A stretch of 63,473 nucleotides of DNA from Girardia tigrina (Eukaryota): the NCBI GenBank assembly GCA_001938485.1, contig MQRK01236834.1, forward strand, positions 1 through 63,473, in the 5' to 3' direction. The notes under the pieces are model-generated. The model had not been told where the DNA came from. It saw only the letters and a program-made list of their open reading frames with translations, and made no database searches. Positions 9,941 through 41,825 of the stretch are shown here, in pieces. A program made the position numbers and the translations under genes. The number at the start of each line of letters is the position of its first letter. Position 1 is the first letter of the stretch.

Positions 9941-10986
9941 TTTCATTTTTATTTCATTTATACAAGCTCATATATAAAGTGATATATCATGATTCCAAGC
10001 GATGATTTTAAAAAAATATAAATATCACGATGTACTTCTTCTTCTGTCGAAAAGAAAATTTGGAGGATTAGGACCCTTCCTCTTCGTTAACAATAAGCTT
10101 AGCGTAAAAAAGGGTTAATGAGAAATAGTATTGTAATGTTAAAATTTTCATTAATACAATATTATAATTATTATTTTATTATTAATAAATCAAAAACATA
10201 TTTTTAATTAATTTTGTAGTATCCTGATCCAGCATTCGAGGTCTGTTTTAATACAATTTTGACGATGACAGAAAATACTTTAGACTGAAGAATTATTTAA
10301 TTAATAAATCTTTGAATTTTAATGTTTTTAATTAATTTTTTTCCTAATGCTGGAAGCGCAATTTGTAAGGAGTCCAATCCAGTCGTGACTAGGAGAACAC
10401 AGTTTCAGTTGTCCCAACACGGCAGGAGGATATTCCCAAGTAAAGTATTATGTGAGTCGCTATAACAACTGATACTAGGCAATTATTTTCTCTAGGAATT
10501 TTCCTACAAATTCTCTCTCGAAATACTTTTCGAAAGTCAATTTAATTAATAATTTTAAAGTAAACTTATGGCTGTTGAGCCCTCAGTCAATGATGCTTCC
10601 TGTTTTAATAAATTCACGTTTGTTTACTCTATTCTTATTAATAAATATTTTATTTTTCCCATTGAAATAGAGAAAATTGGGTTGTGTTATAGTAGAAACG
10701 TTTCATTCGCAAATTTGAGGATCTTTTGTCTATTGGAAAAATAATTAAAATATACTATTCGTAAAATATTGGGTGATAGCAAATAATATGGACTTTGATT
10801 ATGAGGGAATGTGGCAAGCAATTAGAGGATTTATAAAGATATCGTGAAGTACCACATCTATTCATCATGGAGACATGTATAAAGTCGAAAAGACGACTAA
10901 TTTAAAATGTTTAATAATATAACAAATTGAAAAAAGATGGCAATTTTTTATTATAAACAAATAAACGCCATTTTAAAATAGATTTC

Positions 10987-11029
10987 GTGATAATATATTT
11001 CGACGGTTTAACCGTCATCATCAGATAAC
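10987..11029 (-). ncRNA. Minimal type-I hammerhead ribozyme (PLE-associated)
   Basis: GTTAT-CTGATGA-T-GACGGTTAAACCGTC-GAAA-TATA-TT-ATCAC; core intact, one mismatch in helix I. Confidence 0.75.
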
Positions 11030-11958
11030 TGATTATGTTCTTTTTTATTGCTGTTATATAAGAAATGAATGAATTTACAGTGGAACAGGAAATAAACGGA
11101 AAATTAACATTCCTTGATTTGTTAAATGAAAGGAAATATGATCATTATGAAACTGAAATATATCGAAAGAAAACTGATACTGGTTTGTACACCTCCATAA
11201 ACAGTTTTTGTGAGTTTAAATATAAAAGGAATATGATCAAACGTTTTTTATACTGTTCTTGGTCTCTTTCTTCTACGTTTTCAAAATACATTGACAAAGT
11301 TATTCAATAATAACAGATACTCTAAGTCCATCATAGACAAATTCACTCGTGAGACTGTAGATAAAATAATCGAAAAAGAAAAAATCAAAAATGAACAAAT
11401 TAATAGTTTAACCATTGAAAACTGCTTTACACCTGGGTATACTCTAAGCTAACCTTACTCCGAGGGTTTTAAACACGTCAAGAATTCGATCTTGAAATCA
11501 ACAAATAATATTTTAAATTTAAAAATTATTTCTCAATCATTTAAAGTTGAGAATATGTTTTGCAATAAATCACATACTCCTTTAGGATTGTGTTCGGACA
11601 TTGTTTATCAATACACATGTAATGGGTGCAATGCCACATACATCGGAGAGACTACCCGTCATCTCTGCAAACGAGTCCAATAACACAGTCAAAAAGGTGG
11701 AAAGAGTAATATTGCTGAGCATAAAAAAACGTGTAAATGTAATATGAGCATAAATGATTTTAAGATTTTGTGCAAGCATTTTAAAAATTATTGGGAGAGA
11801 GTGTCATGTGAAGCATTGTTGATAAGATCATGTGATCCTAAAATCAAATTTCAAACAGCACTCTCAACTAATTTATTAAGAGTATTCGATTAGACATACG
11901 TAAGTGTTAGTATAATCATTCATTTCTTATATAAAATCAATAAAAAAGAACATAATCA

Positions 11959-12001
11959 GTGATCTGATGATGACGGTTAAACCGTCGAAATATATTATCA
12001 C
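11959..12001 (+). ncRNA. Minimal type-I hammerhead ribozyme (PLE-associated)
   Basis: GTGAT-CTGATGA-T-GACGGT/TAA/ACCGTC-GAAA-TATA-TT-ATCAC: helix I GTGAT/ATCAC, 6-bp helix II, palindromic minimal helix III. Confidence 0.8.
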
Positions 12002-12753
12002 AAAATATATTTTTAAATGGTGTTTATTTGTTTATAATATAAAAAATAAATATTGTTGTCCCTCCTCAACAATCCAAAAATAAAACCGATAAAAATCGCT
12101 AAATTCCGATAGAAAATCAAATAACGAATTCAAAAATTTTTATTAATCAATTATAGAAAAAAATGAATTTTTTTAAATATGGTAAACCTTTTTGCGATGA
12201 ACTTTTTAATTACATCATGTTACACTTTTTGTTTGTAGAAGGTATTTGTAAAATATTTTCTAAAATTGATAACAATCTTTTGATAATGAAATGTTTTGCT
12301 TCTGTGAATTCTCCACTGTCATTCGTTCCTCTATTTGCATTACTCTCTTTACGAATGAACAAAGAATTTCGAAATTGTAAATCGCTTTGATGAACTTTAT
12401 GAGCATACTTGGTCGTTTACCGTGCGATCAATTTTCTAATTGTTGGTAATAAATATCAGCATTATAAGTCATCATCTTGTTTATGAACCCTAAATCTCAT
12501 CAAATATAAAACTCTACTTGTGATCCGAATAGATGATAGAAAACATCTTTTCTATGATGCATAGTTTATTCATGAGTGTCGTTTACTTCCCTGGTATCAA
12601 TAGGATCAACTAGCTAACAATGCTAACTTCCTGGGACGTTAATGAACATTTTTATAATCTGCTTTTTCTTAATGAAATTAATAATGTAGATTGTTTTTAA
12701 AAAAACATAAACCTGTGCATGGCAAAGTTAAATATATACAAGGAAGAAAAATA

Positions 12754-12793
12754 GGGTGACGCGTTTCGAGAAAAGCATCTCATCATCAGGTCC
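12754..12793 (-). ncRNA. Hammerhead-like motif (second PLE-type family), helix I damaged
   Basis: GGAC-CTGATGA-T-GAGA(TGCTTT)TCTC-GAAA-CGCG-TC-ACCC: intact core, palindromic CGCG helix III and GUC cleavage triplet, but helix I does not pair. Confidence 0.55.
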
Positions 12794-12840
12794 ATTCACA
12801 CATAGCACTCAACTAGCACACTATACGGAAACAGTAATTA

Positions 12841-13050
12841 CAGTATTTTTCCGTGTATAAGAACCCCTTTTTTGTCAAAATTTAATGAACATTTTACGCG
12901 AAATTTCAAAAATTAGTAAATATTTGAAATTTTTCTCAAACACAAAATATTTAATATATTTTCTGGAATGAATTAAAGTATTTTTTTTGAACTTTTGAAA
13001 AATGCACACCCAAAAATAAGGGGATGGGTCTTATACACGGAAAAATACAG
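12841..13050. mobile_element. pogo-type MITE
   Basis: TA|CAGTATTTTTCCGTGTATAAGAACCC ... GGGTCTTATACACGGAAAAATACAG|TA; ~25-bp TIRs and TA TSD. Confidence 0.8.
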
Positions 13051-14015
13051 TAGTTGAGTAATAATACTTCAACAAGTTGTCTCTTCAACAAAATGCATTT
13101 ATTTATTGTATAAATAAGGAAAATATATCGCTAAAATGTTTAAGTACCTCCGTACAAGGTTGTAACATTGACATGTGGAATAAAAAAATATATTGCAACA
13201 ATATCAAATATATATTTTGGAAATTTAAATATCTAATGTTAAATCGAAATAATTTCTTACATAAAAATTAAAAAGAAATATTTTATTGAATACAAAATTT
13301 AATATTAACAATTTATAACAATCTTCCGAATTTCGTCATTTTTAAAATAACCCCCAAACAAATTCCGAATTTTTGTTCTTTATTGTTGATCAATTTCTAA
13401 GTTATAACATTAATATAATTTATTTTTTTATATTTTTTGTTAGATAGAGGTAACCAACAGTCTTGTACATATTCAGTGCCTCACATCAACAAATAACCCC
13501 CAAAAATATTAATATCATTTCTGTTTGCAAGTATCAGAATTTTAAACTTCTGGAAATACATAAATGTACATAAAAATGATTTCTATAAATTTATTTACTT
13601 TTTATGAGGATAAATATTTATCATTTCCCCGTAATATAGCAATCTCAATCGATGGAGCGCCCAAAATGGAATGTAAATAAATATCACTTTTTATCACATT
13701 TATTCAATAAATTTGTCAGTGACATTTTAGAACGACTTTTCCATTTCTACTTCCACTAACATCTTTTTTACCAATTATTTTTATTATTATCATCGTTTAA
13801 TAATAATTCGATCATTAATCTTCATTTAAACTTTCTGTTAAAATTTAAAATTTTTGTTGGCGTTAAAATTTTAAAATGTGTTCTGTAAAAAACTTGATAT
13901 TTTGTTTCGGTAGTAGCCAACTACTATTACTACTAATATATATGTGTGTGTGTGTGTGTAAATAAATAAAATATAAATATGAAAATCATTATTATTATCG
14001 ATCGATTCAATAATA

Positions 14016-14065
14016 CAATAAACAATAAACAATAAACAATACAATAAACAGATTCAATAAACAAT
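14016..14065 (+). repeat. (ACAATAA)n short tandem repeat
   Basis: acaataaacaataaacaataaacaatacaataaac... Confidence 0.8.
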
Positions 14066-14879
14066 CTGATGGTTGGATTTATCCGAATTTTCTTCGCCAA
14101 TTCAGTCATGACATGACGATTACATCAAATTTATCAATTTTGACATCGTGGATTTATGTTTTACAACATTCTCGATATTTTGAGTGACCCGTGTGATAAT
14201 GGGTATTCATTCGCAAGCAAATACCACCATATCATATCGATCAACAACCATCAAATTACAGTTATTCAGATTTTTGAACGATATCGCGATATGTGCCATT
14301 TCGATGTTGGAAATTTTGATAATACTGGCAGCGATCTCGAACTTAGTTCTTTATTGTACAACTTTGAAAAAGAAGTCAAAGAATTAATTGATAATGCCTA
14401 ACAACAGAGCATGATGTGACATCATACACAAAATAATATAATTCAATCGTTCCTATTCAATGTCTAAGTATTACTGTCTATCAAAGTCCGATGATTTGAG
14501 TTGAATTGGAAAAATATTCAAGCTGATTTCCGCATTGTTTTTCTGTGACGCATCCAATCGGATCACTTCATTTTGCTGGGTTTTCTGCTTTAGCCGAAAC
14601 TGGAAATTCGTATTATATGGCACTATTGCCGATGAATTTAAATGAAACTACCGGCACCTAAACCACTTACATTGCGAGTTCACCCGACTAATGTTTAGTA
14701 ACATACTAAACAGGTAAATCAGCATTTGTACAACAAATTTCGAGTGACAATTGCGGTTCACCTATTTTGAATTGGCCAGAAAGATACTTATTGTCACCGA
14801 ATGATTTGATAATTAATTATATTCATGATCATTTGGTGTCTATTGTGTAACTGATAACCATTATTCATCTAATTATTAT

Positions 14880-15137
14880 ATTATTATATTATTGGTTAAA
14901 ATAAAATTACTATTTATCATTTAAAGATATTAATTTAATTTAATAATTTACAAATTAAAATAAATAAAAACATTTAAAATTTGCAATCATAATAAATTAA
15001 AATTTTTAATATTAAATCTAAATTTGAATAAATTAGTTTCAGATGATAAGAATTAATATATGAAACATTCATCTGAGTAGGAGAGACACGATCCAAAATC
15101 GACAAACTAAACATCAACATTCCAAATATTCCTCCCA
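14880..15137 (-). mobile_element. Partial LTR, Gypsy family A
   Basis: Core CATCTGAGTAGGAGAGACAC and LTR 5' end aatattcctccca (cf. aatattcctcaca). Left boundary is approximate. Confidence 0.65.
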
Positions 15138-15482
15138 CTCCGTAATTATAAAAAGCATGGTTCTTATCATTTCTTGGCTGGTGGAGGAAGGATTTTAATT
15201 ATAATATATTTTGAAAACCTACTTCTTGATTGCTCATTAAAAGGTATCCTGAATTATAATGAAAAAACAGTCAAACAGAGATATGAAATCAGAATTGAAA
15301 CTGACTAAACACAAAATAGTTCTAAAAGAAGTTGAAAGAAGACCAACAAATCTAAACAAGATAGAAAATGTAAACTCAATAAGAAACTGTTAAATCAAGA
15401 AGGTTGAAAAATGTGTTAATTGTGGTTGGTTGGGTTGACTAAAATCGGTGTTTTACCAAATAAAATTTAATTGGCTTTTAAA

Positions 15483-16972
15483 TTAGGTTGGTCGAAAATA
15501 ATGGCGGTTTTTGAGCTTTATACTTTGTTTATCTACTTTGATATGTATATAAGTTTAAATGCATTTGTGTTAGATATTATTTGAAATCTTATGCCTAGCT
15601 GTATATTCATATAGCCATTATTAACATATTGCTGTTACTTTTTAGAATATTTACGGTGCTAAATTAATAATGGAAAAATTAAAATTCGAGCAATTTTCTT
15701 GTACGAATTTAAACTGGGTCGTAAAGCAGCAGAAACGGCTCGCAATATCAATAAAGCATTTGGCAAGGGAACAGCTTCTGAGCGCTCAGTACAACGATGG
15801 TTCCGAAAATTTTCTGATGGAGATGAAAACCTTGAAGATGAAGAAGGTCATGGTCGTCCAGTTGCTGTGAACAACGACAATTTGATGACAATGGTGGAAA
15901 CAGATCTCCGTACAACAATCAGAGAACTTGCAGAAGGGTTGAGCATTAGTCATTCAACAGTCCTGGATCATTTTAAACAACTTGGAAAAATCAAGAAACT
16001 TGATAAATGGATTCCACATGATTTGAATGAAAATCAAAAGAACCGACGCTATGAAATTTGTTCTGCTAATCATCTTCGCAATAAAAACGATCCATTTCTT
16101 GATCGTATTGTTACATGTGATGAGAAATGGATCCTGTATGATAACCGACGTCGATCTGCACAGTGGTTGGACAAAGATGAAGTACCGAAACACTTTCCAT
16201 AACACCCCGTAAGGTTATGGTGACAGTTTGGTGGTGTGATGCTGGAATCATCCACTATAGTTTCTTGAATCCAGGTGAAACAATAACAGCGGAGAGGTAC
16301 TGTCATGAAATGGATGAAATGCATAAAAAATTGAAAACCCTTTGTCCGGGATTGGTCAATCGAAAAAGTCCCATCCTTCTTCATGATAACGCTATACCTC
16401 ATATTTCAAAAGTGACTCTTCAAAAGCTTAANNNNNNNNNNNNNNNNNNNNNNNNNNNNNNNNNNNNNNNNNNNNNNNNNNAAAAGCTTAATGAGTTGGG
16501 CTATGAAACCCTGCTTCATCCACCATATTCACCAGACCCCTCGCCAACGGACTTCTACTTTTTCAGGCATTTGTACAACTTCCTACGTGAAAAAATTTTC
16601 TAAAACCAAAACGATGCTCAAAATGCCTTCCAAGAATTCGTCGCTTCGAGAACCGATGCATTTTATGCTGATGGAATAAATCAACTTGTTTCTCGTTGGC
16701 AAAAATGTATTGATGCCAACGGTTCATACTTNNNNNNNNNNNNNNNNNNNNNNNNNNNNNNNNNNNNNNNNNNNNNNNNNNGCCTTCCAAGAATTCGTCG
16801 CTTCGAGAACCGATGCATTTTATGCTGATGGAATAAATCAACTTGTTTCTCGTTGGCAAAAATGTATTGATGCCAACGGTTCATACTTTGATTAATAAAC
16901 CTTTGTTTCTGTGAATTTGCACGCCTTTGAAGTTTGTGCTCCAAAACCGCCATTATTTTTCGACCAACCTAA
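15483..16972 (+). mobile_element. mariner element, cecropia/Hsmar1-like, disrupted transposase
   Basis: TIRs TTAGGTTGGTCGAAAATAATGGCGGTTTT / AAAACCGCCATTATTTTTCGACCAACCTAA|TA. Protein YEFKLGRKAAETARNINKAFG..WIPHDL..IVTCDEKW..HDNA..HPPYSPDPSPTDF (D,D34D). Has frameshifts, stops and assembly gaps. Confidence 0.95.
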
Positions 16973-19381
16973 TATATTGCTTGGTGGGACATCCTGTATA
17001 TCATTTGAACTGTAAAATGCAAGAATTCAAAAAAAACAAAAATATTGCAATAATTTCAAATTCATTTATTTTATTGAATTAAACGTTTAGTTCATTTGAA
17101 ATAATTTTAGAACATGTTGAAAATTTTTCTATTTTTATACATTTATATTTAATTCTCATTGGAAAATTGTATTCTCCTAATCGACAAGTACATAATTTTA
17201 TTTTTAAAATTCTGCAATTTTCACAATTCCCAAAGATAAATCTCAAGTTTGGACCGAGACATTATTTACGATTCACAGACGATTGAATCTCCAAGATTAA
17301 TTAATGTCGATATAATGGAATAATTAAATTAATATTCTTTAGTCAACCAACTATATTTTTAAATTAAATTATTTAAATGAGATTCATTTGATTTAACAAT
17401 TTTTATTTCTCATTTAAATTATGAGAGCAAATTCCAATTTTCGTTTTCCTTCACCTAAAAGTTTAAATTTTAATTTTAAAATTTGACATTAAATTTGACA
17501 ATAAATAAAATCTTTGATATTACAATTTGCTCCCTGGAGAGAATCTTCATTATTATCGATCACGTACAACACACACACACACACATTGACACACAGTGCT
17601 TGACACACACACACACGCACACTTACGTAAACATACATTTTCCACACATCGACTTTCAATTGAATTATTATTCGATTTCAAACGCAAAAGAAACAAAAAA
17701 ATAATTGTCATAAAATTAAAAAAAATATTTAAATTAAAAATTTAAACAATTTATTTCTAATTTACTAATTTCATCAATTTCCGTTAAATGAAAATTATCT
17801 CCCAAGTGTTACTTAGATTATTGGTTTCTGATTAACACTAGGAAAATTATTTTGAAACGAATGTTATAGGGGAACAATTACACAGATAAAAGAAAGGAGG
17901 AGCAAAAATATTTTGTAAGACTGCAAAACACAGAAATAGCTTCACCGCAATTCTCCTGCATTTCGGTTCTAAATTTGAGACTCAAAATTATCGGAAATTC
18001 GACTAAAAATATACATGTCCTAAAAGACTTGTATCATATGAAACTAGACATTGAAAGCCTGTATTTGGATATATCTTTTATATTCGTACAATATCTGAAA
18101 ATTTTATTCCAACTTCTGTATTCATTTCAAACATAAACAGATTTGTCATGAAGCCATAAAATTTACTCATATTTTGACAGATTCTTTCAATGCAACTAGC
18201 AGTTTAAAAAAATAAAATTAACACGTATAATAATAATAATAAAATTAATAATTTTTATTATTCGAAAGAATATTAATCATTATTTAATAATTTTGAAAAG
18301 TTATAATCATTCAAATGTATTTATTTATTTCAAATTAATAAAATATAGTAAAAAATTATTTCATTGATAAAACTCTGAATTTATATATGTTGTTTTAATC
18401 AAAAAATATTTTGGAAACGAGCTTAAAGTTTAGTTTATTGTATAATAAATAATTACAATCAAAAATATTTTTTAAGGATTCGAATTGCAGTTGACAATTT
18501 AGCCATCCGAAATCGAAATAAACCATTCAACTTTTGATAATTAAGCTCTCAATAATTGATCAAATAATCTTTCGTCAAACAAAACTAAATTTCAATTCAT
18601 TCACAAAAATTCGAAAATAATTTGCCAAAAATTGAAATGTAATTCAGTCAAAAAGAATAATGAATTTGTGCCAAATGTCAAACAACTTTAATTTAATAAT
18701 CACAATTTGAAAACTTAACAGTTAATACAAAATTAATCACGTGTGTCTTATTCTCAATTTAATTTTACACCAATTCTTTTGTTTTCAAGGTCATCCAATT
18801 TTAACAATCTGATTTAGTAAAATAAATTTATCTTATTATAATTATTTAAATTATTAATAATAATATTTAAAAGCAAAATAAAACGTCTCAAATAATTCAA
18901 CTATTGCTGTCTTTTCAATTCTTGAAATGAATTTTTTGAAAAACGAATTCTTTTAATATAAATAAATGCAAAAATTAAAGCTAACAATAACAAAAAATAA
19001 ATATATATTATTTAGAATTTCGGAACTAATATTATAATTATTGTTCTTATTATTATTTGAAGTATTAGACATGGACATTTGAAAAATTATAGGAGGAAGT
19101 TGAGAATGTGATTCTATTTAAAAGAAGGTCAATTTGATCCAAAATGTCCTCAAAAAGCTTATTATCTTTCTACATTTCAAGAAAACATCGAGCTGAATTT
19201 TTAATTAAAATTACCTTATTGGGATCAGATTCTTTCGACGAACCTAGGAAAAGAGGTATTTCAAAAATTATTTCCAATTATACCCATTTTCAAAAATGTT
19301 AAAATTAAAATTGGATGTTATTATTTAAGAGTTTTTTCAATAAAATCTGATGAAAATATTTCTCAAATATTATAGTCATAC

Positions 19382-19624
19382 CGTATTTAATTTGGCATAT
19401 ATCTCCGACCAGAATGTCTCCCACAGCTATTTCCTGAGATTGTTTATTTCTTATAACTTGGAATTTGTGCTCGGATTCAATTTTGTTTTGAAGACCTCGA
19501 AACTGTCTTTCCTTCTGCCAGTCATTGAATGCAATAACAAACACTACTAGCACCACGGCGGCCAAGATCGCCACACCTTCTATCCAACCGACCTCAGACT
19601 CTTCCTCGTTGTGATCACCAAAGT
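19382..19624 (-). CDS. ATP2B: PMCA coding exon 3 (TM2 and start of actuator domain)
   Basis: Acceptor ttttag|AC, donor G|gtatga. Translates (Y)FGDHNEEESEVGWIEGVAILAAVVLVVFVIAFNDWQKERQFRGLQNKIESEHKFQVIRNKQSQEIAVGDILVGDICQIKYG. 243 nt, phase 1 to phase 1. Confidence 0.96.
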
Positions 19625-19969: not shown

Positions 19970-21707
19970 TGTTAATATTGCAAAGGTCTAAATTATTACA
20001 ACATCACAACTCGAATTGCCTCTAGGACGATTCTCCACCAAACCTTGATTAATTTAAATTCTATTTCTAAATCTCTAATTATGCGAACAAATTAATTTAC
20101 GATTCTCTACTAAAATATTTTAAGATAATTATCAAAAATATATTAATTCATTTTAAATAACTTATTGGGTTGTTCGGAAAGTCATTTCGTTTTTTAATGT
20201 ATTTTTTATATTAATAATCATTAATAATCATTGACAATATTATTTATTTTAGTAGTTGGTAATCAAGGTTAGATTTGGAAAATTTTGGAATAATTAAAAA
20301 CATTTATATTTGATTGTGGACCTATCAAAGATGGAAAGCAAGAATCAGCATTTACGGCACGTATTACTTTCTTAACTTTCGAAAAGGTAAAAATGCTGTA
20401 CAATCAAGAAGAAAATTATGCGAAGTGTATGGAGAAGATGTGTTGACAGAACGCCAATGCTAAAACTGGTTTAATAAATTTAGATCCGGAATTTTTGATG
20501 TTGAAGATTCTTTACGTTCCCGAAGGCCCATTGAGGCCGACGAAGACATAATAAAGACATTAATTGATTCAAACCGGAAAATAACAACTCGCGAAATTGC
20601 GCAGACATTACATTTATCTAATTCCACTGTCCATGATCATTTGAAGCACCTACGTTTTACATCAAAACTCGACACATGGATTCCTCATAATCTTACCGAA
20701 CGAAATTTATGTTGTCGTTTAGACATCTGCGATATGGTTCTCAAACGTCAAGAAAATGATCCATTTTTGAAGCGCATCGTCACTGGAGATGAGAAATGAG
20801 TAATCTACAATAATGTAAACTTCAAGAGATCTTAGAGTAAAAAAGATCGACTTGCTCAAAGCAGTTCGAAAGCTGACATTAATCAAAAAAGTGATGCTAT
20901 CTGTTTGGTGGGATTTCAAAGGAATCGTATTTTATGAGCTTCTTCCGGACAAAACTACGATCAATTCGGACGTCTACTGTCATCAGCTGGACAAATTAAA
21001 TGAATCCCTTAAACATAAAAGGCCAGAATTGATCAATAGAAAAGATATAGTGTTTCACCAAGATAATGCCAGACCTCATACAAGTTTGGTAACTCGCAAA
21101 AAAAGCTTTTACAGCTTGGATGGAACATCATGCCTCACCAACCATATTCTCCAGACCTCGCACCTTCTGATTATCATTTGTTCCGGTCTCTACAAAATTA
21201 TTTTGATGATAACACTTTTTGATCAAATGAAGATGTTAAAAATCACCTGGAAAAGTTTTTTAGCAGCAAAGAACAAATATTTTATGAACGTGGAATCTTG
21301 TCCCAGCCAGGAAGATGGAAGAAGGTATTGGACCACAATGGTCAAAATGTATTTCAATAAGATATTTATTCGTCATAAAAAATTGTCTTTTCCTTTAATA
21401 CAAAAAAACGAAATGACTTTCCGAACAACCCAATATTTATAATTAAATAAATCTTTATGTGTTAATCAACTATAAACATATTTTAAATCACTTTAAAATA
21501 GGTTTTTAAAATTTTTATTAAAATATTATTATTATTTATTGATTAAGATATATTGATTTAATTTTAAAGTTGTTATTTACATTTCAAAGTTTGCCAAATA
21601 ATCCGACGGTTCAAAATATCAATATTCCATTTGAATGAGAGAATTGGTTTACGGAATATGGGTTTAAAACAACATACAATTAACACGACCCGAAAATATT
21701 CCTCGCA
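19970..21707 (-). mobile_element. Solo LTR, Gypsy family A, split by a mariner insertion
   Basis: LTR 3' part (cacaactcgaattgcctctaggacgattctcc) lies left of the mariner. The core ccatttgaatgagaga and LTR start aatattcctcgca lie right of it. Confidence 0.65.
20165..21433 (+). mobile_element. Full-length mariner (mellifera-like), dead transposase
   Basis: Perfect TIRs TA|TTGGGTTGTTCGGAAAGTCATTTCGTTTTTT ... AAAAAACGAAATGACTTTCCGAACAACCCAA|TA. Protein MESKNQHLRH..FRKGKNA..WIPH..IVTGDEK..KVMLSVWWD..FHQDNARPH..YSPDLAPSDYHLF, with stops and frameshifts. Confidence 0.95.
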
Positions 21708-27995: not shown

Positions 27996-29137
27996 TATGT
28001 TTACCGTATCCTTACAGAGGATGTCGATGATCAAGATCTAAACGTAGCAGGAATCAAACTTTTCTTCTCATTTTGGAGGAAAGGAACCATGTAAGGTAAA
28101 GAAATACACCAAATCAACTAATAGTAAAAATAATACACAAAAAACAAAGATATTATATTCTATAAACTCTCTGTTTCTCAATTTATATTCATCATATTTT
28201 CATTTTAATTAAAGTTATTGAAAAAGAAAAACAGTTTCCCCATTCTCTCGAATAATCTCACAAATCGTCACTGATTCTGCAGCTTCCTGTTGACAACAGA
28301 TGCCGTGTTTTATAAACGCATTATTTCGACAAAGATGCATCCAGTTAGAAACATAAATCTGAAGTTATTTACAGTCTCCCTTTCTTTTCCTTTCGTACCA
28401 CTTCACAAAATAATTATTGGAAGAGCTTTGCATGGCATTATTTACACTTGTTCTTATAGGATTAGTTGAGAAAATTAATATTTAGAATATTTTATACATA
28501 TACTGATGTAGATTATTCATCACCTCTAACGGTATCGAATTACTAATAACTATATTTAACTAGATCCGATAGAGCAGATCCAATGACGGGTTTGTTTGGG
28601 AAGCGTTCGAGTACCCTTTAAATATCAGTGGAGAACATTGGTGACCCACTGTTTCCCGCAAATGCGTTGATTCTCTAGACCAACAATCACCGATTATAAC
28701 CTACATGAGATCTGTTTCTCGTTTCATGTTCCTATTAAGATAGACGATCTCCAGTTTTGCTTGAATCGTCCCTCCATATCCGTGGATGGAGAAACTGATG
28801 GTGAATATAGAAACACGAAGTATTTTATGAGGAAAGATTTCATAGTAATTAAATATAGAAAATACAGTTTCTGATAAAAAAATTGTTTTATTATATTTAA
28901 AATTTTGTGTGGTGTAACCCCAATTTACATTTTACTTAAACAAAATCAATAATTAAAAAATAAATTTTCACATATATCAAAAAAAAGTATTTTATTAATA
29001 TAATAACTGATCAAACGTCATTTTAATTTTAAATATCAAAAGGTCCAAAATCGAAACCAATTTAATCTCATAACTTAATATTCTCAAGCAACATTTTATA
29101 ACTAGTAACTCCAGAAAAATACATTCGTTTTAAATTT

Positions 29138-29760
29138 AAAAAATTCTTAAGCCAATCAAAGTTAATTAAATTCGACGGTTTAACCGTCATCGTAAGAACA
29201 AAAGATTCTTCAAACGAAATGTACTTATATAGTGCAGTTAATGATTATGTAATCAATACGTAATCAGTACATCATTTAAAAACTCTCAACAAAGTTGTAG
29301 AGAATGAAATTTGAACGTTAATTATAGGATCCAAAGATCTTATATATAATGCTTCACATGTCACTCTCTCCCAATAACTTTTAAATTGTATGCACAGAAT
29401 TTTAAAATGTTGTGAAGTTATATCTCCTTTACAATGTCTTATATGTCCTGCAATGTTACTTCCACCTTCATTTCGACTGTGTTCCTGGATTCTAAATTTT
29501 AAAATTATTAGGAGAGAGTGACATGTGAAGCGTTATATATAAGATCTTTGGATCCTAAAATAAACGTTCAAACTGCATTCTCTACAACTTTGTTGAGAGT
29601 TTTTAAATAATGTACTGATTGCGTATTGATTGCATAATCATTAACTGCACTATATAAGTAAATTTCGTTTGAAAAATCATTTGTTCTGACGATGACGGTT
29701 AAACCGTCGAAATTAATAAACTTTGATTGGCTTGGAAATTTTTTATTTGATAATTTGCCA
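29138..29760. mobile_element. Penelope-like foldback: truncated minus-strand copy plus inverted plus-strand pLTR
   Basis: ~250-bp inverted arms (29138-29386 and 29494-29745). Minus copy encodes the endonuclease tail IQEHSRNEGGSNIAGHIRHCKGDITSQHFKILC..YWERVTCEALYIRSLDP. Confidence 0.88.
29683..29721 (+). ncRNA. Minimal type-I hammerhead ribozyme (PLE-associated)
   Basis: GTT-CTGACGA-T-GACGGTTAAACCGTC-GAAA-TTAA-TA-AAC. The partner copy at 29161-29199 (-) has core mutations (CTTACGA, GAAT). Confidence 0.78.
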
Positions 29761-30074
29761 ATTTTATTTCAATTTATTCACGTTTTAAATTTATTGTAAA
29801 ATTAAGGATTCTAGATATTCAATATAACATTGTGAGTTAAATTGATTTTTCATTATTTCAGTACAAAATATTTTAATACCGTGGGGGTCAATGAATTACG
29901 TGGATTAATTGCGATTTTAACATTTTCTTTCTTTCCTTATATTATTACTGTGTGAACACATTTGCTATGTAAGTAAGAATATTATTTATCCGATTGTATA
30001 TTGTGAAGACAATATTTCCCAGGTGTGAACATCCCAAGCTTTTCTGATTGTGTTTATACATAATATAAATATAA

Positions 30075-30285: not shown

Positions 30286-30289
30286 CTGG

Positions 30290-32050: not shown

Positions 32051-32063
32051 CTTATTTATTCTA

Positions 32064-32490: not shown

Positions 32491-33812
32491 ATCGTGTCTC
32501 TCCATTCTCTGTACCGCTCGAGCTAGTTTTCAAACTCGCCGCGTCTGTCTTAAGCAAGCACAATCTTTAGCGTCTTCATGATTCCAATTTTTTAAATGCC
32601 ACAAAAGTTTTTGGCAAAACTCAAATAAAAATTCGCTGAAAAACGACTAATTTCAATATAGTTTTCTCGTTCTCCAATTTCCCGCTTTATATCAGATTAT
32701 TCAAACAACTTAAGTTTTCCTTCGCTACCACAATTACAAATCTGAAAATATTGCACTTATATTTGAGGAATGAGAAGAACAAAAATAGATTATAATAACG
32801 TTCCCGACGATCTAATGACCGGTACTTCTAGGATTTTAATTTATTTTAATGAAACCAGATGGTGTGAAAATTACAGAAATATTTATAGAAATTTTGTCGG
32901 AGGAAAGCAAAACGACAAGCGATTTTGGATAGAAGGAACAATGGAAAATAATCGATCATTGCACATTTGCCTCCGTAGAATCAATAATAATTGACATTGC
33001 ACCCAAATTTGTGTGGTTTCATTTATTTATGTTTCCTTTTCTGATTAGAATTCCTATTTCACACAAGAAGATTTGCTGCCAACTAAAATATCAATTACTT
33101 CACATTATATATAAATATACATAAAGAACAGAAATTATCATTTATATTTATACGTATTTAATTATTTACAATGACGTGCACGTCACGGATGAGATCTAAG
33201 ACTTGATCAGCTTTTTATAAATATTATATACATTATTGGAAATGCTTATTACATTTTTCGCCTAATGGCGAACCGCGAGCAACGCGCACTACGCATGGAT
33301 ATCGCGCAACCTCAGCGACACATTAGCTGCGCTGCGATGTCATGAATCTGAAATTTCCTTTCTTCCCTTCCTTAAAATAAATTTCCACCCTACGCAATTG
33401 AATATTTATATATTTCAGTAACGAATCACATAATAATCTGACGGATGTGAGTCAGAATTTGTTACTAAGAGAGAACATTCATCAATCATTTAAATCAAGT
33501 AATTCTTGGTGTCCAAATATTTCCAAAGGGTTCAATATTCATACTACATGGAATGAGCTCTTTAAATCGCGTATCGCAGTCAACTATAAATCGCTTATCT
33601 CAAGTTATTGTATATCTCAATTTTTTTAAAATAATAATCTTTTCTCCATTGGCGTTCTCTGGCAGATTGTAAACTAAATCGCTGGTCTCAATATTCTCAT
33701 ATCTCAATTTGTTTATGGTTCTCATTATTTGGAAATAAGAGCAGTTTAATGTAGTAAAAAATAATTATAATAATAATTATCGCAATAATAATTTAAAAAA
33801 TAATATTCTTAC

Positions 33813-33986
33813 ACATTGTATATACAGACAGGCCAAGTGATATCAGAGCAGCTATAATTAATACAATAAGGGTCAGATCTTGAATAGCTTCCCACATGAG
33901 TTGTAAAAATGTTTTTGGCGGTTTAGGTGGAATAATATTTGAACCATACGTTTCAATACGTTTGGGAAAGTCATCACACTGGAGCC
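33813..33986 (-). CDS. ATP2B: PMCA coding exon 2 (N-terminal cation-ATPase domain and TM1); absent from the ORF track
   Basis: Acceptor ttctag|GG, donor T|gtaaga. Translates (G)[57 protein letters not shown], containing the PMCA hallmark [15 protein letters not shown]. 174 nt, phase 1 to phase 1. Confidence 0.95.
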
Positions 33987-34713
33987 CTAGAATGAGTAAA
34001 AAATGTATAGATAAAGTACAGATAGAATAACAGTTGAAACTTTCAAAAAATATTTTTTAATTTCAACAAAATTCCCCAAAACATGTGGATACTATTTCTA
34101 TGAACCTAAACTCCAATAATAACAACCCTACCCTTATTTGTACACGGTACCCCATGAACCAGATATACACTTACCTCAAATGTTTTTATATTTTAATACA
34201 AAATAATTTTGTTTTATAATAAAAATAATATTATTAAAAAAATTAAGAATTATTGAGGTATGAACATTATTTTTTAAATTATTTTTCAAATGATAAATCT
34301 GTAGATGAACAGAAATCGGTACGAAGAAGAAGCAAGGTTCTTTGACCTTACTTCCTGCAAAATAATTACAAGATATTAATGTTAAATTGGATCAAAATCT
34401 GCAAGTTCATGGGAAGTATTATTGTATAATACGACATATTTAGAAGAAAGAAGATCAAAGAGAACACAAAATGCTGAAGATACGGATTCTGACAAAGAAC
34501 AAAAAGAAGTTTTTAAGATACTTCTGGAAACTATTAGGTTGTAAAATATGAAATTTTTAGACATGATTGCAATTGATTATAATTTGACAATGACTTAACA
34601 ATTTGTTGCCCAGTTGTTTTGTTTGATTGCTACATATCTTGGCTAATGAACACATTAATAAAAATTAATTAAAATTATTACGAACTCGTTTTAATAATCA
34701 GTATTTTTGAAAA

Positions 34714-35286
34714 ATGGGATCGGCAGAATTTCCTACAATTGTGAAGTTCGAGTTCATATGAGGAAAGTTAGCATCAGAAGCCATGCAAAACATCAATAGT
34801 GTAATTAGACGCAATGCTACTACACAGCAGACAATCTCAAATTGGTTCACTTAATTCTTGAAAGTTAATTTTTACAACTATAATGAGGTCGCACAGGAAC
34901 ACAGGTAGACCATAACGAACTGAAGGTAACCGTAGAGTCGGATCTATTACAAATTGCCCATCATTTATCGCTAACGTTTACTGTAACAAAGCGAGCAATA
35001 TTTAATCACTTGACTGTAATAGGTATAGTGAAAATTTTTATAAAGGGAATTCCCCATTATTTGAATTACAAACAGAAACAAAAGCGTTTGGATACTTGCT
35101 TGATGATGCTTTAACGTTATAAATGTAATCACTTTTGGAAAGGTATTGTATTTTGTGATGAAAAGAGTATCCAATATGATAGTCGAAAACGTTCAGCAAG
35201 CTGGGTAGACACGAATGAAACACAAAAACACAACTCAAAGAATAACATTAATCAAAAAAAACGGAATAACTTTCCGGGCTACTCAA
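34714..35286 (+). mobile_element. Degenerate internally deleted mariner
   Basis: IVKFEFI*GKLASEAMQNIN and IVFCDEKSIQYDSRKRSASW motifs; 3' TIR aaacggaataactttccgggctactcaa|ta. Confidence 0.65.
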
Positions 35287-35869
35287 TATTTGAAGATTTG
35301 AGATGGTCTTAATTTATCAGTTTTGAATTTTCATTAGTGGGTTATAGAGTCTTTTCAATAATAAATCACGTAATTATAGCCCATTATACGAATCAGAGCC
35401 CTTCTCTAAAACAGAAAATTCATCCCTTGAAACAAAAGAGATTCAATTTGTACAATGTAACCAAATATGAAGAACCTTAAGCGATCAACCCGATTGCGAA
35501 TACTCACTAATCAGGGCTTTAATATGATGATTTGTCTCTCCAATTTATGAGTTAAATTTATTAAATTTATTCTGCCATTTATATTCATTGAAATCTTAAA
35601 AGAATAAAATTTATTACATTGTTTTATTACATTTTTTATTATCTAAGAATACATTATAGTTATGTGACTAAATACTGCGATTAAACTAAAGATCTAGTAA
35701 ACTGTTTCTATTTATCACTTTCAAAATTTCTTGTTGATTTATTTCAATATTTATTATTTTATAATGCATTAAACAAAATATTTATTTTTTGTATAATTTC
35801 TTAATTATTATCTTAATGATTAGATTCCAAATCAAATGGAATTACTACAATAAACATATTAAATAAAAT

Positions 35870-36919
35870 AACTTAGACAACTATAACATTATTTAAGCAC
35901 CATTAAGCACCAACGTTGGCTTAAATTTTTAAGGGTCTTTGGGATAAAATATGTAGACACCCTATAGAAAGGCAAGTTCTGTACAAGATGTAGATGACAT
36001 TTTTCTTGTTTTCAGAAATGATAAATTTTTGAATATCCTCCTAATATTAAATCCATAACAGAATTAAAAGTAAATAACAAACTTCCTTTTCTTGACATTT
36101 TTGTAATTAGGATTAATGGGATATATCGAACTGCATTATACAGAAATAAAACAGATAAAGCTCTCTACACAGCGCCACGGAGCTTTTGTAAGGAAAAATA
36201 TATAGATGGTGAAATAATAAGAATTTAAAATATGTCATCAAATCTTAAAATCACAGGCCTTGCTTTAAATGTGTTTAAAGGACGCTTTAGGGACAACAAA
36301 CAGATAGATCCAAACATTCATGGTATATTTCATAACAATGTACACAAACACGGCTTAAAAAAGGACTAAAGGAAGAAAACATTAAAGAACACAATATAAT
36401 ATAATATAATATTTTGATGGATTTAGAGCATTTAAGACGAATATGTCAAAGTAGTTTCTATGAAATCCAAGTTACAAGCTTTGTCTAAAATAAATATAAA
36501 ACAATTTGTGAATTGCAAGCTAATCTGGTTTATAAATTTCATTGTCACGAGTGTAAAAACTCTTATATTGGAGAGACAAATCGTCATCTCAAAACCCGGA
36601 TTAGCGAGCACTCGCAAATGAGTCGATCGAGTAAGGTTCTTGTGAATCATTATTGATAAGACGCTACAACCCATTAATCAACATTCAAAATGGGCTAAGT
36701 AAGACCACCTCAATTTTTGAAATATTCTATTTAAGTAAATAAAAATTTTGTCCATAATATTTAATAAAATCTTGAGAAAATTATATTTACTGATAAAATC
36801 TTTCATTAATTAATATTCTATTATTTTAAACATTAAATTATATTTGCTGACAACAGAAGATGTTCAAAACATGTTTAAAAATCAATTTCTTAAAAAAAGC
36901 TTTAACAAAATTATTTTTC

Positions 36920-36920
<1 letters not shown>
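35870..36920 (+). mobile_element. Penelope-like relic (family 2)
   Basis: RT VDDIFLVF, KLPFLDIFVIR, YRTALYRNKTD; GIY-YIG NLVYKFHCHECKNSYIGETNRHL; decayed hammerhead-like end near 36845. Confidence 0.75.

Positions 36921-36924
<4 letters not shown>

Positions 36925-36970
<46 letters not shown>
36925..36970. repeat. (TA)n microsatellite
   Basis: Pure TA run. Confidence 0.95.
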
Positions 36971-36975
<5 letters not shown>

Positions 36976-37899
36976 TAGCTTTCTCCTATCTTTCGTCTTC
37001 TATAAATTGAATCCACATTACATGGACATACATAAACGACAGAAATATTTTAACATAAATATTCTCTATCAAAACAGTTTTTGCCAATGGAGAATGTTAC
37101 TGGCAACACCGGTGCAAACTGTAAATTAACTGTAAAGAAGAGATGACATTTTTGTAAAACATGTCTGCATAGATTCAGATATACAATTTGTATATGTTAA
37201 GAATAAAACTAGTTTTTATTTTTGATAAGCGTCAAAGTCGATTCACCTATTAACTGAAATCGTAATTACCTTCAAACCCTTCTGTAATAAAAAAACCTCA
37301 CTGTAAAATGTCAATAAAGAGGTGTTCCTAAGCAAGGTTGGAGACATGTTTTAGGGATTGAAGGAATCAGGGAATAGAAATTCTGTAATCTGTCGTTGTA
37401 TTACGATTCATAACGATGAAGCAGAAATGTTTCCCTTTTCCTATTAAACTAATGAAGAGAATTATTATTCATTTGAATAATTCATTCATTATTACTAATT
37501 TACTTCTCCTAACTTTTCATTATTTTACATTCAGAAAGATTTTTTTCTATTTTATAAAAGAAAAAAGTATTAAAAACATTTAATGTAGGAAAAAGATAAT
37601 GATTGGAACTAAATGTTTTATTTCGATTCAGATTGCCGCCGGCTAAGGAACAGTAATGATCCCAAGTTTCGTATTTGTTATAGTCTTGTGGCAAATCTAA
37701 CAGTCTTGCTAGAGTAAAGAGCAAGAAAAGGATTACAAAAGGTTTGGAGGCATGTCGGTCTGAAAACGTCACCTTTCGTTTATAAGTTAGATACTCACAG
37801 GAGTACAAACAGTTTACCGGGAAAATTCTATGTATTATTTTGGTAAAGAAAATTTAAAACATAACATAAAAACGAAAGTTGAAAATTTCGACAACCACG

Positions 37900-38574
37900 T
37901 CGAAAATTAGCAATTGGAAAGAGAGCTTCATATTCAGAAGATTTAAGAATAACATTTTTAAAAATATCAAAAATGTTAAGATATTTTCCGTAACATCCAA
38001 AGTAAGAAGTTACTTTACGAGTAAATCCAAAACTGACAATTTAGTGAAAGCTAATCTCGTGCACAAATTTAATTGACATGGGTGTAAAACTCGTACATGG
38101 TAGAGTCAAATCGTCATCTCAAAAAAAACGGATTAGTCGAGATAGAGTCGAGTATGTAGAGTAAGGTTTTAAATCACTGCCAAGAATGAACTTTATCAAT
38201 TTCAAAAGATCAAGTTTCTATTCATTAGAAGAATTTTGATTCACATTATCAGATGTTATATTGTGAATCATTGCTAATGAGTCACTGTAACAATTGACTA
38301 ACATCCGAAATGGGAAAAGTAAAACAGCCTCAAAATTAAATATCTTTAAATAAAATAAGTAAACTTAATTAAAAAAAAGTAACCAATAAAATATCACATT
38401 AATATTATTCTTTTATATTTTGTTATCATTATATATTTTAAAATGAAATAATTATTAAAAAAACAAATAATAAGAAAATAAATTTCAACTTAAATTAAGT
38501 TGCTGAAGATGATCAAAACATATTTAACGTTGATTTTTTAAAATGTTTTATTAAATATCCATTCTAAAAATTTC

Positions 38575-38578
<4 letters not shown>
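37900..38578 (+). mobile_element. Penelope-like relic (family 2), 3' part
   Basis: Paralogous to 36440-36900 (NLVHKFN*HGCK..ESNRHL..CESLL); remnant gttg-CTGAAGA-tgatc-aaaa-cata-tt-taac at ~38499-38529. Confidence 0.7.

Positions 38579-38616
<38 letters not shown>
38579..38616. repeat. (TA)n microsatellite
   Basis: Pure TA run. Confidence 0.95.
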
Positions 38617-38620
<4 letters not shown>

Positions 38621-38781
38621 TAGTTTCAAAAGTAATAACAAATAAATTTCCATTTGTTTATTCTTTGTAAACAAAAAAACTAATATTGATTCTGAAAAAT
38701 AATACGGGAAAGAAATGAGAAAAGTAATAAAAACTAAAGATTATTTGTTATCCTTTCACGCCTCTTTTCCTGAAACATTGT

Positions 38782-39363
38782 TGTAAGTAGCGTTTATGCG
38801 ACTTTTATTATTATCAAATTTCGAAGTCATAATTTAACACCACAAAATTTATTAATCTCAACAATTCACATATTTAAACAAATTTCTCAATAATTCAATT
38901 ATTTCGCCCAAAATTAATTCATTAATTTTTTTCGATTAAATTTTGAAAATTTACGAAATTTAAACTCTAAAATATATTTACATTTTTTACGAACTTTTAC
39001 GAAATTTAAACCTTTAAATAACTTTACATTTTTACGAAAATTTTACGAAATTTAAACTTTAAAATAATTCAAACATTTTTACGAAACTTTATCATAAAAA
39101 CTAATTAATTTAAATTTACAATAAACCCTTTTATTAAAAAAATTATTTCTTAAAATATTAATCCGTTAATTATTTATTTTAAAATTTATTTAAACTTATT
39201 TCATGACTTTTATTAAAATATATCAATTGTTATTACTGTAAGCATATTTTAAATAAGTATTTAATCATATTTTTACTCTACATTTTAATTTTTTAATTTA
39301 TTTCAAATTTGAAAAATAATAAACTATTTTTGCGAAACCTAAATTTAAACTAACCCCTACTCA
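38782..39363. mobile_element. LTR-like repeat family B, copy 1, with internal TTTTACGAAATTTAAAC tandem units
   Basis: Starts TGTAAGTAGCGTTTATG and ends AAATTTAAACTAACCCCTACTCA; colinear with 47936-48488. Confidence 0.6.
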
Positions 39364-40864
39364 TTAAATATGTAAACTGTGGTAAAAAATCATCAAATAA
39401 TGATAAAGTTGGAATTTGTTTCGAAGAGAAACAGAAATCGTTCCACTTGAACTATTGGCGGGGGGTCGCACATTCTTTTGGTCGTCTTAGGGGACAATTG
39501 CATAAACTAACTCTTTCCAACTCATACAACACTTTTTTTTATAATATCTCTAATGATTTTTCAATATTAATTAACTTAAAATTATATATATTTTTATAAA
39601 ATTTCAGTTGTATAAGTACAGAGTACATAATATCAGTAAATTTTTTAATGATTATATATTATCAGATTTTTCAATATATATTATCAATAAAAAAAATATA
39701 ATATATATATAATATATAATATATAATATAATGTATAATATAATATAATGTGCAATATAATATATAATGCTCCAAATAGAGCTTCAAGATGATCAATTTG
39801 AACATTAATTTTGAGTTCCTATGATATTAGTAATAGCGTCTTCTTTTGACTTTTTTCCAATTATGCATTGCAAAATTTATTATCCCTAAAAGTCAATTTT
39901 TAGTCTATAACAATGGCCAATATACACAAATATATAGGAGTTAGAATAAGATAATATTTTACAACTTTTAAGAACTATAACAAGTTTAAACAATTTCGTG
40001 GACAGTTTAGGAGTTTGTTTGCCTATGGACAATTTTGAATGTAAGTTATTATCTGTGTAAGAAAGTTGATGTTTCTGTCATATACCTTAATGTACCTGAT
40101 GGCGAGCTTGAGCCGTCTTTCTATATACATTAAGTAAATATGGATGATACCTTAAGCCGTCTTTACCTACAAAGGAGAAGCAGAATCAACGACTACTGCA
40201 TTATATAAGAAACTTTCTTTTCAGTATTAATTTTATCTGTTCAACAAATGAAATTTAGTAAACTGTAATTCTTTTCACATTTATTATCAAAAATATAAAA
40301 AATTTTAATAAAATATCATTTCATCATTATTAAGAACATCAATCTTATTTTGTAGACTTTTCCTTTTATCACTGTTTGCATTACCTTTGAGACTGAATAA
40401 AATAAAGTTTGTTTAAATGTAAATTTTATTATTTGGAAATTTTGTATTTTTATACTGTTATATTTTATTAAAAACTCTTCGAATATTTTTATATCTTTAA
40501 TAGATATGAGATTTATTTGCAAGGTCAGATCCAGGGGACAAGCTGGGAAGAGTATTTTTATAAATAAAATAATAAAACTATAGGAGTATAATTAAATTAT
40601 TTTATTACGTTTTGAGATGATTGACCAAAAGACAGAAAGACAGACCGATATTTTCGAAAAAACCTGTGTGATGAATTGTGCAGACTTCAAAAGATGAAAA
40701 TGTTTTAATACTTTAATGCTGTTATCGAATCGGTATTAATCAGAAATAGCATAAAAATATTTACCATAAAATTCATAGGTTAACTTTAATCTAAGTGAGA
40801 CGTTGTAGCACCCTTGAGCGATTTTACTTAATGAAGAGTAAATCTTTAATATAAATTCTTGGTG

Positions 40865-41187
40865 TTTTTACAAGCTTTTATTACGTTTCATTTGTTTGTC
40901 TGTCTGGATGCATCATATCTTGCGATCGAAAATTCACCAACTTCCCGTTGACCTAGCGACATGAAACTTTCAGGACTGATGTATTCTAGGTAACAATACA
41001 CTTTTTCATTGTCACTGTTCATCTACCGCCTTTAGTTTGACCACAAAAAGTAATTAAAGTGTCGTTCTCATGTTTTCGCCTAGTAGGCTTTGATAATTCA
41101 GTCAAAAAATGTGGGAAGTGGGTGACATAGATACAGAACCGCAAACATATGACAAATTATAAAAGCTTGTACACCACATATTTTTTT
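40865..41187 (+). mobile_element. Helentron-associated / DINE-1-like non-autonomous element
   Basis: Subterminal inverted repeat TACAAGCTTTTA / TAAAAGCTTGTA, (GTTT/GTCT)n microsatellite, CTAGCGACATGAAACTT core, T-rich ends. Confidence 0.55.
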
Positions 41188-41477
41188 GGTATGATTATAC
41201 TTATTTCTTTTAATGTCTATAAACAAAATAATTCCCTTAGAAAATGGCCTTATAGTTTATAAGAATAGTGAACTCTTGAAAAAATTATAATTAAACAATG
41301 AAACATTAAGAACCAATGAGTTTTTTAGTTTTCTTTGCCAAAGCCCTCAACCCCGTTACACTGTTCTTGGTTTAAATTTGAGATTCTATGGGGGGGGAGT
41401 GATTATCTACTTTACTTATCTGCCATTTTTTGTATTTTAAATATAGTATTTAATTTTGAATAAATTGAAATAAATTT

Positions 41478-41825
41478 GGCAAATTATCAAATAAAAAATC
41501 CTTAAGCCAATTAAAGTTTATTAATTTCGACGGTTTAACCGTCATCGTCAGAACAAATGATTTTTCAAACGAAATTTACTTATATAGTGCAGTTAATGAT
41601 TATATAATCAATACGTAATCAGTACATCATTTAATAATTCTCAACAAAGTTGTAGAGAATGCAATTTGAACGTTAATTTTAGGATCCAAAGATCTTATAT
41701 ATAATGCTTCACATGTCACTCTCTCCCAATAATTTTTAAAATGAGTGCACAGTATTTTAAAGTGTTGTGAATTTATATCTCCTTTATAATGTCTTTTATG
41801 TCCTGCAATATTACTTTTACCTTAT
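41478..41825 (-). mobile_element. Penelope-like 3' fragment (same family as 29138-29760)
   Basis: Near-identical to the minus arm of the 29-kb foldback. Confidence 0.85.
41516..41554 (-). ncRNA. Minimal type-I hammerhead ribozyme, intact, sense to PMCA pre-mRNA
   Basis: GTT-CTGACGA-T-GACGGTTAAACCGTC-GAAA-TTAA-TA-AAC on the minus strand. Confidence 0.78.

Follow-up and report, generated by a model that had tools for sequence, protein, structure and literature searches.

Minimal hammerhead motifs in Penelope-like element copies within the introns of a planarian PMCA gene

The PMCA locus and its hammerhead motifs

We analysed a 63,473-nucleotide stretch of the Girardia tigrina genome (contig MQRK01236834.1, hereafter the window) that contains part of a plasma-membrane Ca2+-ATPase (PMCA) gene and, within its introns, minimal hammerhead ribozyme motifs carried by Penelope-like elements (PLEs). 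The PMCA gene lies on the minus strand, with four coding exons, GT-AG introns and 248 codons free of stops. PMCA homologues are the best matches of the exon at ~19.4 kb, and the named ones come mostly from flatworms and other lophotrochozoans. Coding introns 1, 2 and 3 span 19.5, 14.2 and 14.3 kb, respectively; intron numbers throughout count coding introns.

53523–53724, minus strand: first coding exon of PMCA, located by tblastn with PMCA homologues; ATG, GT donor, frame continuous with the next exons
33813–33986, minus strand: PMCA coding exon 2, from homologue search with splice and frame check
19382–19624, minus strand: PMCA coding exon 3, from the same search and check
4911–5036, minus strand: PMCA coding exon 4, from the same search and check; the gene runs past the low end of the window

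A motif scan identified four copies of CUGA(U/C)GA-U-GACGGU(UAA)ACCGUC-GAAA, with core position C3 at 11024(−), 11964(+), 29686(+) and 41551(−). Strict matches thus number four in the window, compared with a mean of 0.003 in 300 mononucleotide shuffles. An initial annotation of this DNA had listed the same four intact-core motifs; its coordinates (10987, 11959, 29683 and 41516) are their outer ends, and its cut positions (10992 and 41519) are the correct H17 sites. The core-mutated copy it placed at 29161 has C3 at 29196(−) and reads CUUACGA...GAAU, and its decayed copies at 46655 and 38500 were found at 46656(+) and 38503(+). The minimal hammerhead core (CUGANGA...GAAA...UH) is broken in these three copies; it is present in the four intact copies and in one motif that the annotation overlooked, at 12789(−).

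The helix II reported as shared is identical in the five best copies, and the two subfamilies (here families A and B) differ as described in their TATA and TTAA loops and AUU and AUA cleavage triplets. Pairing had been said to be kept in each, which fails at 11024, where helix I (GUUAU/AUCAC) has a U-C mismatch at pair 3. The helix I given as GTGAT/ATCAC is present in window copies, but the family-wide helix has only 3 bp (GAT/ATC). The copy at 41551 lies in PMCA intron 1, those at 29196 and 29686 in intron 2 and those at 11024 and 11964 in intron 3. The four-exon model therefore bears out that the intact minus-strand copies, 41551 and 11024, lie in introns 1 and 3 in sense orientation to the pre-mRNA.

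The annotation had proposed a covariance-model search. An Rfam scan of the window at E≤1 returned no hammerhead family and only a weak 5S rRNA match. A custom model built from ten family representatives recovered the five best copies at E 1e-8 or better (two of the five belonged to its training set), as well as 46640–46700 (E=0.0013) and 51182–51237 (E=0.031).

41516–41554, minus strand: minimal hammerhead, family B, intact core and helices I–III; C3 at 41551, AUG of the element at 41545, cleavage predicted at 41519/41518 (AUA); no other sense copy is clean
29683–29721, plus strand: intact minimal hammerhead of family B; C3 at 29686, cleavage predicted after 29718 (AUA); antisense to PMCA
29161–29199, minus strand: hammerhead, family B, core changes at G5 and A15.1; C3 29196; sense to PMCA
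11959–12001, plus strand: intact minimal hammerhead of family A; C3 at 11964, AUG of the element at 11970, cleavage predicted after 11996 (AUU); antisense to PMCA
10987–11029, minus strand: minimal hammerhead of family A with its core intact and pair 3 of helix I mismatched; C3 at 11024, cleavage predicted at 10992/10991; sense to PMCA
12755–12792, minus strand: minimal hammerhead of another repeat family, intact core, ACGCGU palindrome, GUC triplet, broken helix I; C3 12789; sense to PMCA
38499–38528, plus strand: decayed hammerhead, its helix II lost by deletion, from a third PLE family; ~150 nt past a GIY-YIG remnant; antisense to PMCA
46651–46689, plus strand: decayed hammerhead, half of helix II gone, within an old family-A-like PLE fragment; antisense to PMCA
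51182–51237, minus strand: weak damaged relic of another hammerhead family (CCACC-type helix II), overlooked by the annotation; sense to PMCA

PLE protein remnants adjoin 3 of the 13 other loci that bear the motif of the 12789 family (15 loci were taken, one of them the window itself). Two further observations concern the host gene. A 5S rRNA-like sequence in PMCA intron 3 (6457–6554, minus strand) scores 28.6 bits against an Rfam cut-off of 38 and is likely a pseudogene. Further PMCA-like genes occur on contigs C234032, C174896, C245662, C229146 and C123610, and near-identical contigs recur in the assembly.

Penelope-like insertions carrying the motifs

Self-comparison of the window traced the four intact motifs to three insertions, at ~10927–12044 (family A), 29137–29781 (family B) and 41456–41827 (family B, solitary). 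The cluster described in the annotation thus stands as four intact motifs but derives from just three insertions. The idea of a specially built motif cluster was rejected.

11074–12044, plus strand: family A PLE with 5'-truncated body; broken reverse transcriptase (RT) thumb and GIY-YIG remnant (11062–11893), pseudo-long terminal repeat (pseudo-LTR) without tail; antisense, PMCA intron 3
10927–11078, minus strand: inverted pseudo-LTR arm of the same insertion, with tail; 93% complementary to 11910–12044; low end approximate
29137–29492, minus strand: family B PLE fragment, one arm of an inverted pair; endonuclease (EN) C-terminus and pseudo-LTR without tail; PMCA intron 2
29497–29781, plus strand: the other arm, family B, with tail; antisense to PMCA
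41456–41827, minus strand: solitary family B PLE 3' fragment; EN C-terminus and pseudo-LTR with tail; PMCA intron 1, sense
46403–46745, plus strand: old family-A-like PLE fragment with a decayed hammerhead inside; antisense to PMCA

The main window insertions each extend back into EN-coding sequence with varying 5' ends, and the well-preserved motifs each sit behind the end of a PLE RT/GIY-YIG frame. Related genomic frames contain the RT domain (Pfam accession PF00078, E 1e-10 in locus L121 and 1.1e-6 in locus L154), and the window remnant at 11074–11887 aligns to relatives of the L121 and L154 RT proteins. A GIY-YIG domain (Pfam accession PF01541) in locus L126 has an E value of 0.00024 and 21.8 bits, slightly below the 22.6 cut-off. 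L154 represents a sister family, ~67% identical to the family A body. Its RT-EN frame spans 816 codons, is interrupted by one stop and includes a C-terminal GIY-YIG-type motif; a hammerhead lies downstream and an inverted copy on the 5' side. The L154 translation, read by eye and compared with the descriptions in PMC8557442, contains a DKG motif and has no zinc-finger linker between RT and EN. None of the copies examined has a fully intact PLE open reading frame (ORF).

In family A, PLE 3' ends fall ~69 or 92–100 nt after the element AUG; in family B, the distances are 54 or 90 nt. These alternative ends, ~25–36 nt apart, correspond to a PLE tail, and in both inverted pairs of the window one arm keeps the tail and the other lacks it. 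Both strands carry a hammerhead at 3 of 29 loci of family A and at 9 of 29 loci of family B. Traits described for PLEs include 5' truncation, an adjoining inverted copy and a 30–40 bp tail (PMC8557442). All three are seen here. The RT/GIY-YIG remnants, truncation, tails and inverted copies together support the annotation in placing the minimal hammerheads within Penelope pseudo-LTRs.

Among 120 homologues, mostly partial, we found no named PLE and no N-terminus initiated by a hammerhead. An initial Pfam scan, which covered five partial frames taken from family loci, returned nothing, and a PDB sequence search gave just weak matches to retron and group II intron RTs. An Atlas search with a relative (P0133) returned RVT_1, HTH_animal and DUF8422 clusters, none named PLE. 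An apparent 1412-amino-acid frame was discarded, since it consists mostly of N.

Other PLE material is also present. Two decayed copies of a third family lie at 35321–36968 and 37942–38616, the first with an inverted arm, and have relic hammerheads near 36831–36891 and at 38503. Relatives of this family have a GAUCA/UGAUC helix II and an ACAUGU palindrome, and several carry an identical helix II deletion. A short PLE RT-thumb relic at 49727–49867 (plus strand) has no hammerhead nearby.

Genome-wide copies and the start-codon overlap

Genome-wide, exact matches number 12,348 when this helix II is required and 21,934 when any helix II is allowed, counts that include some redundant contigs of the assembly; a reversed control gave 0. 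Exact 37-nt copies of the family B motif number 1,818. Across ten family representatives, 92.7% of 110 cells are paired, compared with 74.3% after shuffling (0 of 500 as high) and 24.5–52.7% with slid partners. Two-sided changes affect 8 of 11 pairs (4 of 5 in helix II, 2 of 3 in helix I and 2 of 3 in the palindrome). The rows were hand-picked, three are single copies, and the search pattern fixed the core, including G10.1 and C11.1. The paired share is 100% in helix III and 76.7% in helix I, whose third pair fails in 6 of 10 representatives, leaving a helix I of 2–3 bp. The palindrome is kept in 10 of 10 via three different sequences, in agreement with the earlier proposal that helix III is suited to dimers.

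The helices thus covary among ten families, as the annotation had proposed to examine across genomic copies. A chance motif was rejected, given 0.003 expected in shuffles and 0 in the reversed control. Shuffles, control and covariation establish that the hammerhead is real at the family level.

The motif also overlaps a start codon. The extra base between positions 9 and 10.1 is U in 10 of 10 representatives, so that A9-U-G10.1 reads AUG. In L154, the peptide that begins at the hammerhead AUG continues, without a change of frame, into the 14 residues with which the long RT-EN frame opens. The downstream frame is open for ~30 codons in families A and B. The predicted cut falls 27 nt past the A of the element AUG, and H17 is U, A or C across families in the genome.

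This layout resembles that of PAc, the Poseidon element of Anolis carolinensis (Frangieh et al., 2024, PMC11167929). As that paper describes it, the ORF of PAc begins where stem II starts, the cut lies ~26–27 nt past the start codon, two 3' end positions define a tail and a GIY-YIG domain is C-terminal. PAc copies end 111–118 nt past the AUG, whereas copies here stop at ~54–95 nt, and dependence on the element's protein has been shown only in PAc. Because of the AUG overlap and the anole Poseidon layout, the hammerhead most likely has its role in the RNA of the element itself. In a tandem element that is active, judging from the families here and from published PLE work, the motif would overlap the start codon and cut the RNA of the element 27 nt into the ORF. 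Cleavage would take place in a dimer joined by the palindrome and would probably depend on bound PLE protein. The overlap in ten families extends the anole arrangement, with the in-frame relation shown in one family. It is not universal, as the 2014 alignment (PMC4209133) has rows with A at the extra base.

Minimal hammerheads of metazoan PLEs were described by Cervera and De la Pena (2014, PMC4209133), and the motifs here share the features given in that account: type I, an extra nucleotide at 9/10.1, G10.1-C11.1, a short helix I and a palindromic helix III. Thousands of mostly solitary family copies and opposite-strand pairs 100–700 bp apart are further points in common with the account. The Schmidtea mediterranea PLE row of its supplementary alignment likewise shows a helix II of 5 bp with a loop of 5 nt, and a UAUA-type segment. 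The family sequences differ from those reported there, and ~22,000 matches here stand against ~2,000–9,000 in PMC4209133, numbers that are not directly comparable because the descriptors differ. Literature searches on planarian hammerheads returned no paper that, judged by its title and the beginning of its abstract, deals with families A, B and the others. What is new is a set of unnamed families, and the kind has been known since 2014, including a planarian example (PMC4209133).

A motif that is no longer catalytic even in active elements, kept as start-codon context and as a protein-binding hairpin, is an improbable alternative. It would account for the A-U-G at 9/9.1/10.1, invariant in 10 of 10, for the ~30 open codons of families A and B and for a helix I of merely 2–3 bp whose third pair is open in 6 of 10. 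PAc cleavage is dispensable for insertion in vitro (PMC11167929), and PMC8557442 describes Naiad PLEs that spread without canonical hammerheads. Coding does not explain C3-G8, upstream of the AUG, nor the covariation of helix I pairs that link a non-coding with a coding base, nor a palindrome kept in 10 of 10 through three sequences. In PAc itself, C3G and G8C abolish cleavage and the double mutant restores it (PMC11167929). Core invariance is a product of our search pattern and hence gives no independent evidence for catalysis.

Fate of the intronic copies and surrounding repeats

The annotation suggested that the minus-strand copies could cut nascent PMCA transcripts. This is not supported: predicted sequestration, motif defects, the missing partner, neutral decay and published inactivity together make cutting of PMCA RNA by the intronic copies unlikely. 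We consider it very probable that the pseudo-LTRs of 5'-truncated PLE copies in PMCA introns carry the motifs as minimal type-I hammerheads, which persist as passive relics and do not cut host RNA.

First, inserted cores decay neutrally, neither protected nor purged. Scored against the family majority, family A cores have 9 changes in 451 positions (2.0%) and flanks 48 in 1,927 (2.5%, p=0.61), and 32 of 41 cores are intact (41 copies from 37 loci chosen by protein). Family B cores have 9 changes in 374 and flanks 47 in 1,598 (p=0.73; 34 copies from 29 loci chosen by DNA that included the motif). One contig was retrieved twice for these samples. Across the inserted copies sampled, we found no locus-specific core conservation beyond the flanks. 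Selective inactivation of sense copies was discarded as a candidate, with 1 of 5 sense and 2 of 5 antisense copies clean, which is no signal.

Second, sequestration is predicted for the sense copies 11024 and 29196, which lie inside predicted inverted-repeat duplexes of 135 nt and 251 nt. The arm facing 11024 is 831 nt away and 93% complementary (predicted long-range pairing of the core 0.999, duplex −159.6 kcal/mol); the 251-nt arm facing 29196 is 107 nt away (0.918, −341.4 kcal/mol). The antisense arms of both inverted pairs are transcribed before their sense copies, and because of this order and the long-range pairing both copies are predicted to be locked. As an observation apart, the inverted PLE pairs at 10944–12044 and 29137–29745 would give long double-stranded hairpins in PMCA pre-mRNA, which might undergo A-to-I editing or be processed into small RNAs.

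Third, the remaining sense copies are poorly placed to form a dimer. Helix III duplexes are worth −0.8 kcal/mol for AUAUAU, −0.2 for AUUAAU, +0.1 for 41551 with 29196 and +2.2 for family A with family B. The 12789 motif has a stronger palindrome (ACGCGU, −7.5) and a broken helix I, and no partner lies within the window. Cofolding of 41551 favours an inactive dimer that pairs helix II with helix II. The one sense neighbour from its family is the mutant 29196, 12.4 kb and one exon away, and the window contains no intact same-family sense partner for it. AUU and AUA cleavage triplets are slower than GUC. Lunse et al. (2016), cited in a review, reportedly studied PLE hammerhead dimers.

Published work points the same way. 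Schistosome minimal hammerheads are described as not cleaving as monomers and cleaving little as dimers (PMC4209133; review PMC6765202). The PAc ribozyme is reported to cut only with its own protein, and the RNA-seq analysis covered in that account found no reads ending at the site (PMC11167929). After insertion, PLE copies, including those at the PMCA locus, would decay neutrally. In the PMCA pre-mRNA, each of the two paired sense copies would anneal to the antisense arm transcribed shortly ahead of it, and 41551, the lone sense copy, would have no stable helix III. Splicing of PMCA would then proceed with the motifs silent.

Several points weigh against this interpretation. The copy at 41551 is intact and, by prediction, unsequestered (long-range pairing 0.13 in 800 nt). 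Folding used an equilibrium model without proteins; we infer silence in the host transcript, and protein-assisted cutting at 41519 is possible. Three contig-only sequence runs of uncertain kind give deep coverage of the repeat within 40600–42200; as contigs reveal neither ends nor strand nor locus, this coverage was weighed on neither side. Strict motif density in the window is 4 against 0.97 expected (Poisson P=0.018), or P=0.076 for three insertions, and 11 other gene spans contained no fully intact motif in 179,833 non-N bases. We give the density of the window little weight, because the window had been flagged for density. Strand counts are too small to reveal a moderate bias, with motifs or relics of the window divided into 5 sense and 5 antisense (two of them weak) and with 4 sense and 3 antisense model matches in the 11 other gene spans (24 loci, 206,629 bases). 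The covariation is weakened in that its rows are pattern-selected and kin by descent. The assignment to a PLE clade is also a weak point: motifs read by eye, rather than a tree, point to Penelope/Poseidon.

It is quite unlikely that the motif at 41516–41554 cleaves PMCA transcripts at a low rate within intron 1 while they are being made, whether with PLE protein in trans, a PLE transcript as dimer partner or the mutant 29196, 12.4 kb downstream, as substrate strand. This copy has an intact core, helix II, palindrome and 3-bp helix I, keeps its full tail and lies outside any inverted repeat. Family B is abundant, as its 1,818 exact copies attest, the anole ribozyme is activated by its protein (PMC11167929), and schistosome SINE (short interspersed element) hammerheads are described as cleaving in trans in vitro (review PMC6765202). 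On the other side stand a helix III worth ~0 kcal/mol, the inactive dimer favoured on cofolding, the lack of an intact same-family sense partner in the window and inserted copies without excess core loss. The copy also stops ~90 nt past the AUG, whereas insertion activity of the anole protein depended on the ORF's first 172 nt (PMC11167929), an argument by analogy only. Very little credence attaches to the broader idea that PLE protein, when expressed, acts in trans on copies such as 41516–41554 and makes thousands of sense intronic copies conditional pre-mRNA cut sites upon de-repression.

Non-autonomous retrozyme- or SINE-like elements moving as small hammerhead RNAs are scarcely credible here: most copies are short (300–1100 bp) and PLE pseudo-LTRs have been proposed as the source of animal retrozymes (bioRxiv 10.64898/2026.07.22.740005), but the main window copies extend into EN-coding sequence with variable 5' ends, no head-to-tail arrays occur in the window, and inverted pairs and tails are marks of PLEs. 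Retrozyme identity was rejected, as we did not find non-coding 150–450 bp head-to-tail repeats with a canonical hammerhead. Animal non-LTR retrozymes do share the type I fold, dimer cleavage and likely PLE ancestry (as described in PMC7229834; bioRxiv 10.64898/2026.07.22.740005), and ~42–44% of Xenopus retrozyme copies are given there as intronic. Retrozymes are non-coding tandem repeats with canonical hammerheads, in contrast to the truncated coding elements with minimal ones found here.

The passive PLE relics of the PMCA introns also resemble host-adopted intronic ribozymes, such as amniote intronic hammerheads and the HDV (hepatitis delta virus)-like ribozyme of CPEB3, in that a self-cleaving-type motif lies in sense in a host intron. 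Host-adopted ribozymes are few-copy and conserved. The motifs here are young repeat copies that decay at the flank rate. If host cleavage were true, ~15 intact cores per Mb would amount to a transposon-controlled layer of pre-mRNA cutting, which would be surprising. As found, the consequence is small and consists in adding families to a described class.

Other repeats occupy parts of the window. A high-copy, 220-bp element with inverted ends (12835–13055), similar to miniature inverted-repeat transposable elements, adjoins the 12789 motif and is separate from it. Frames that by eye resemble LTR-retrotransposon gag/pol and integrase remnants lie at 61798–62955 (plus strand) and 9073–9501 (minus strand), and Pfam returned nothing for 9073–9501. 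Remnants of mariner-type transposases (HTH_48, Transposase_1) and of a Tc5/pogo-type DNA-binding domain lie at 15663–16603, 20464–21442 and 57099–57509 (plus strand) and at 164–481 (minus strand).

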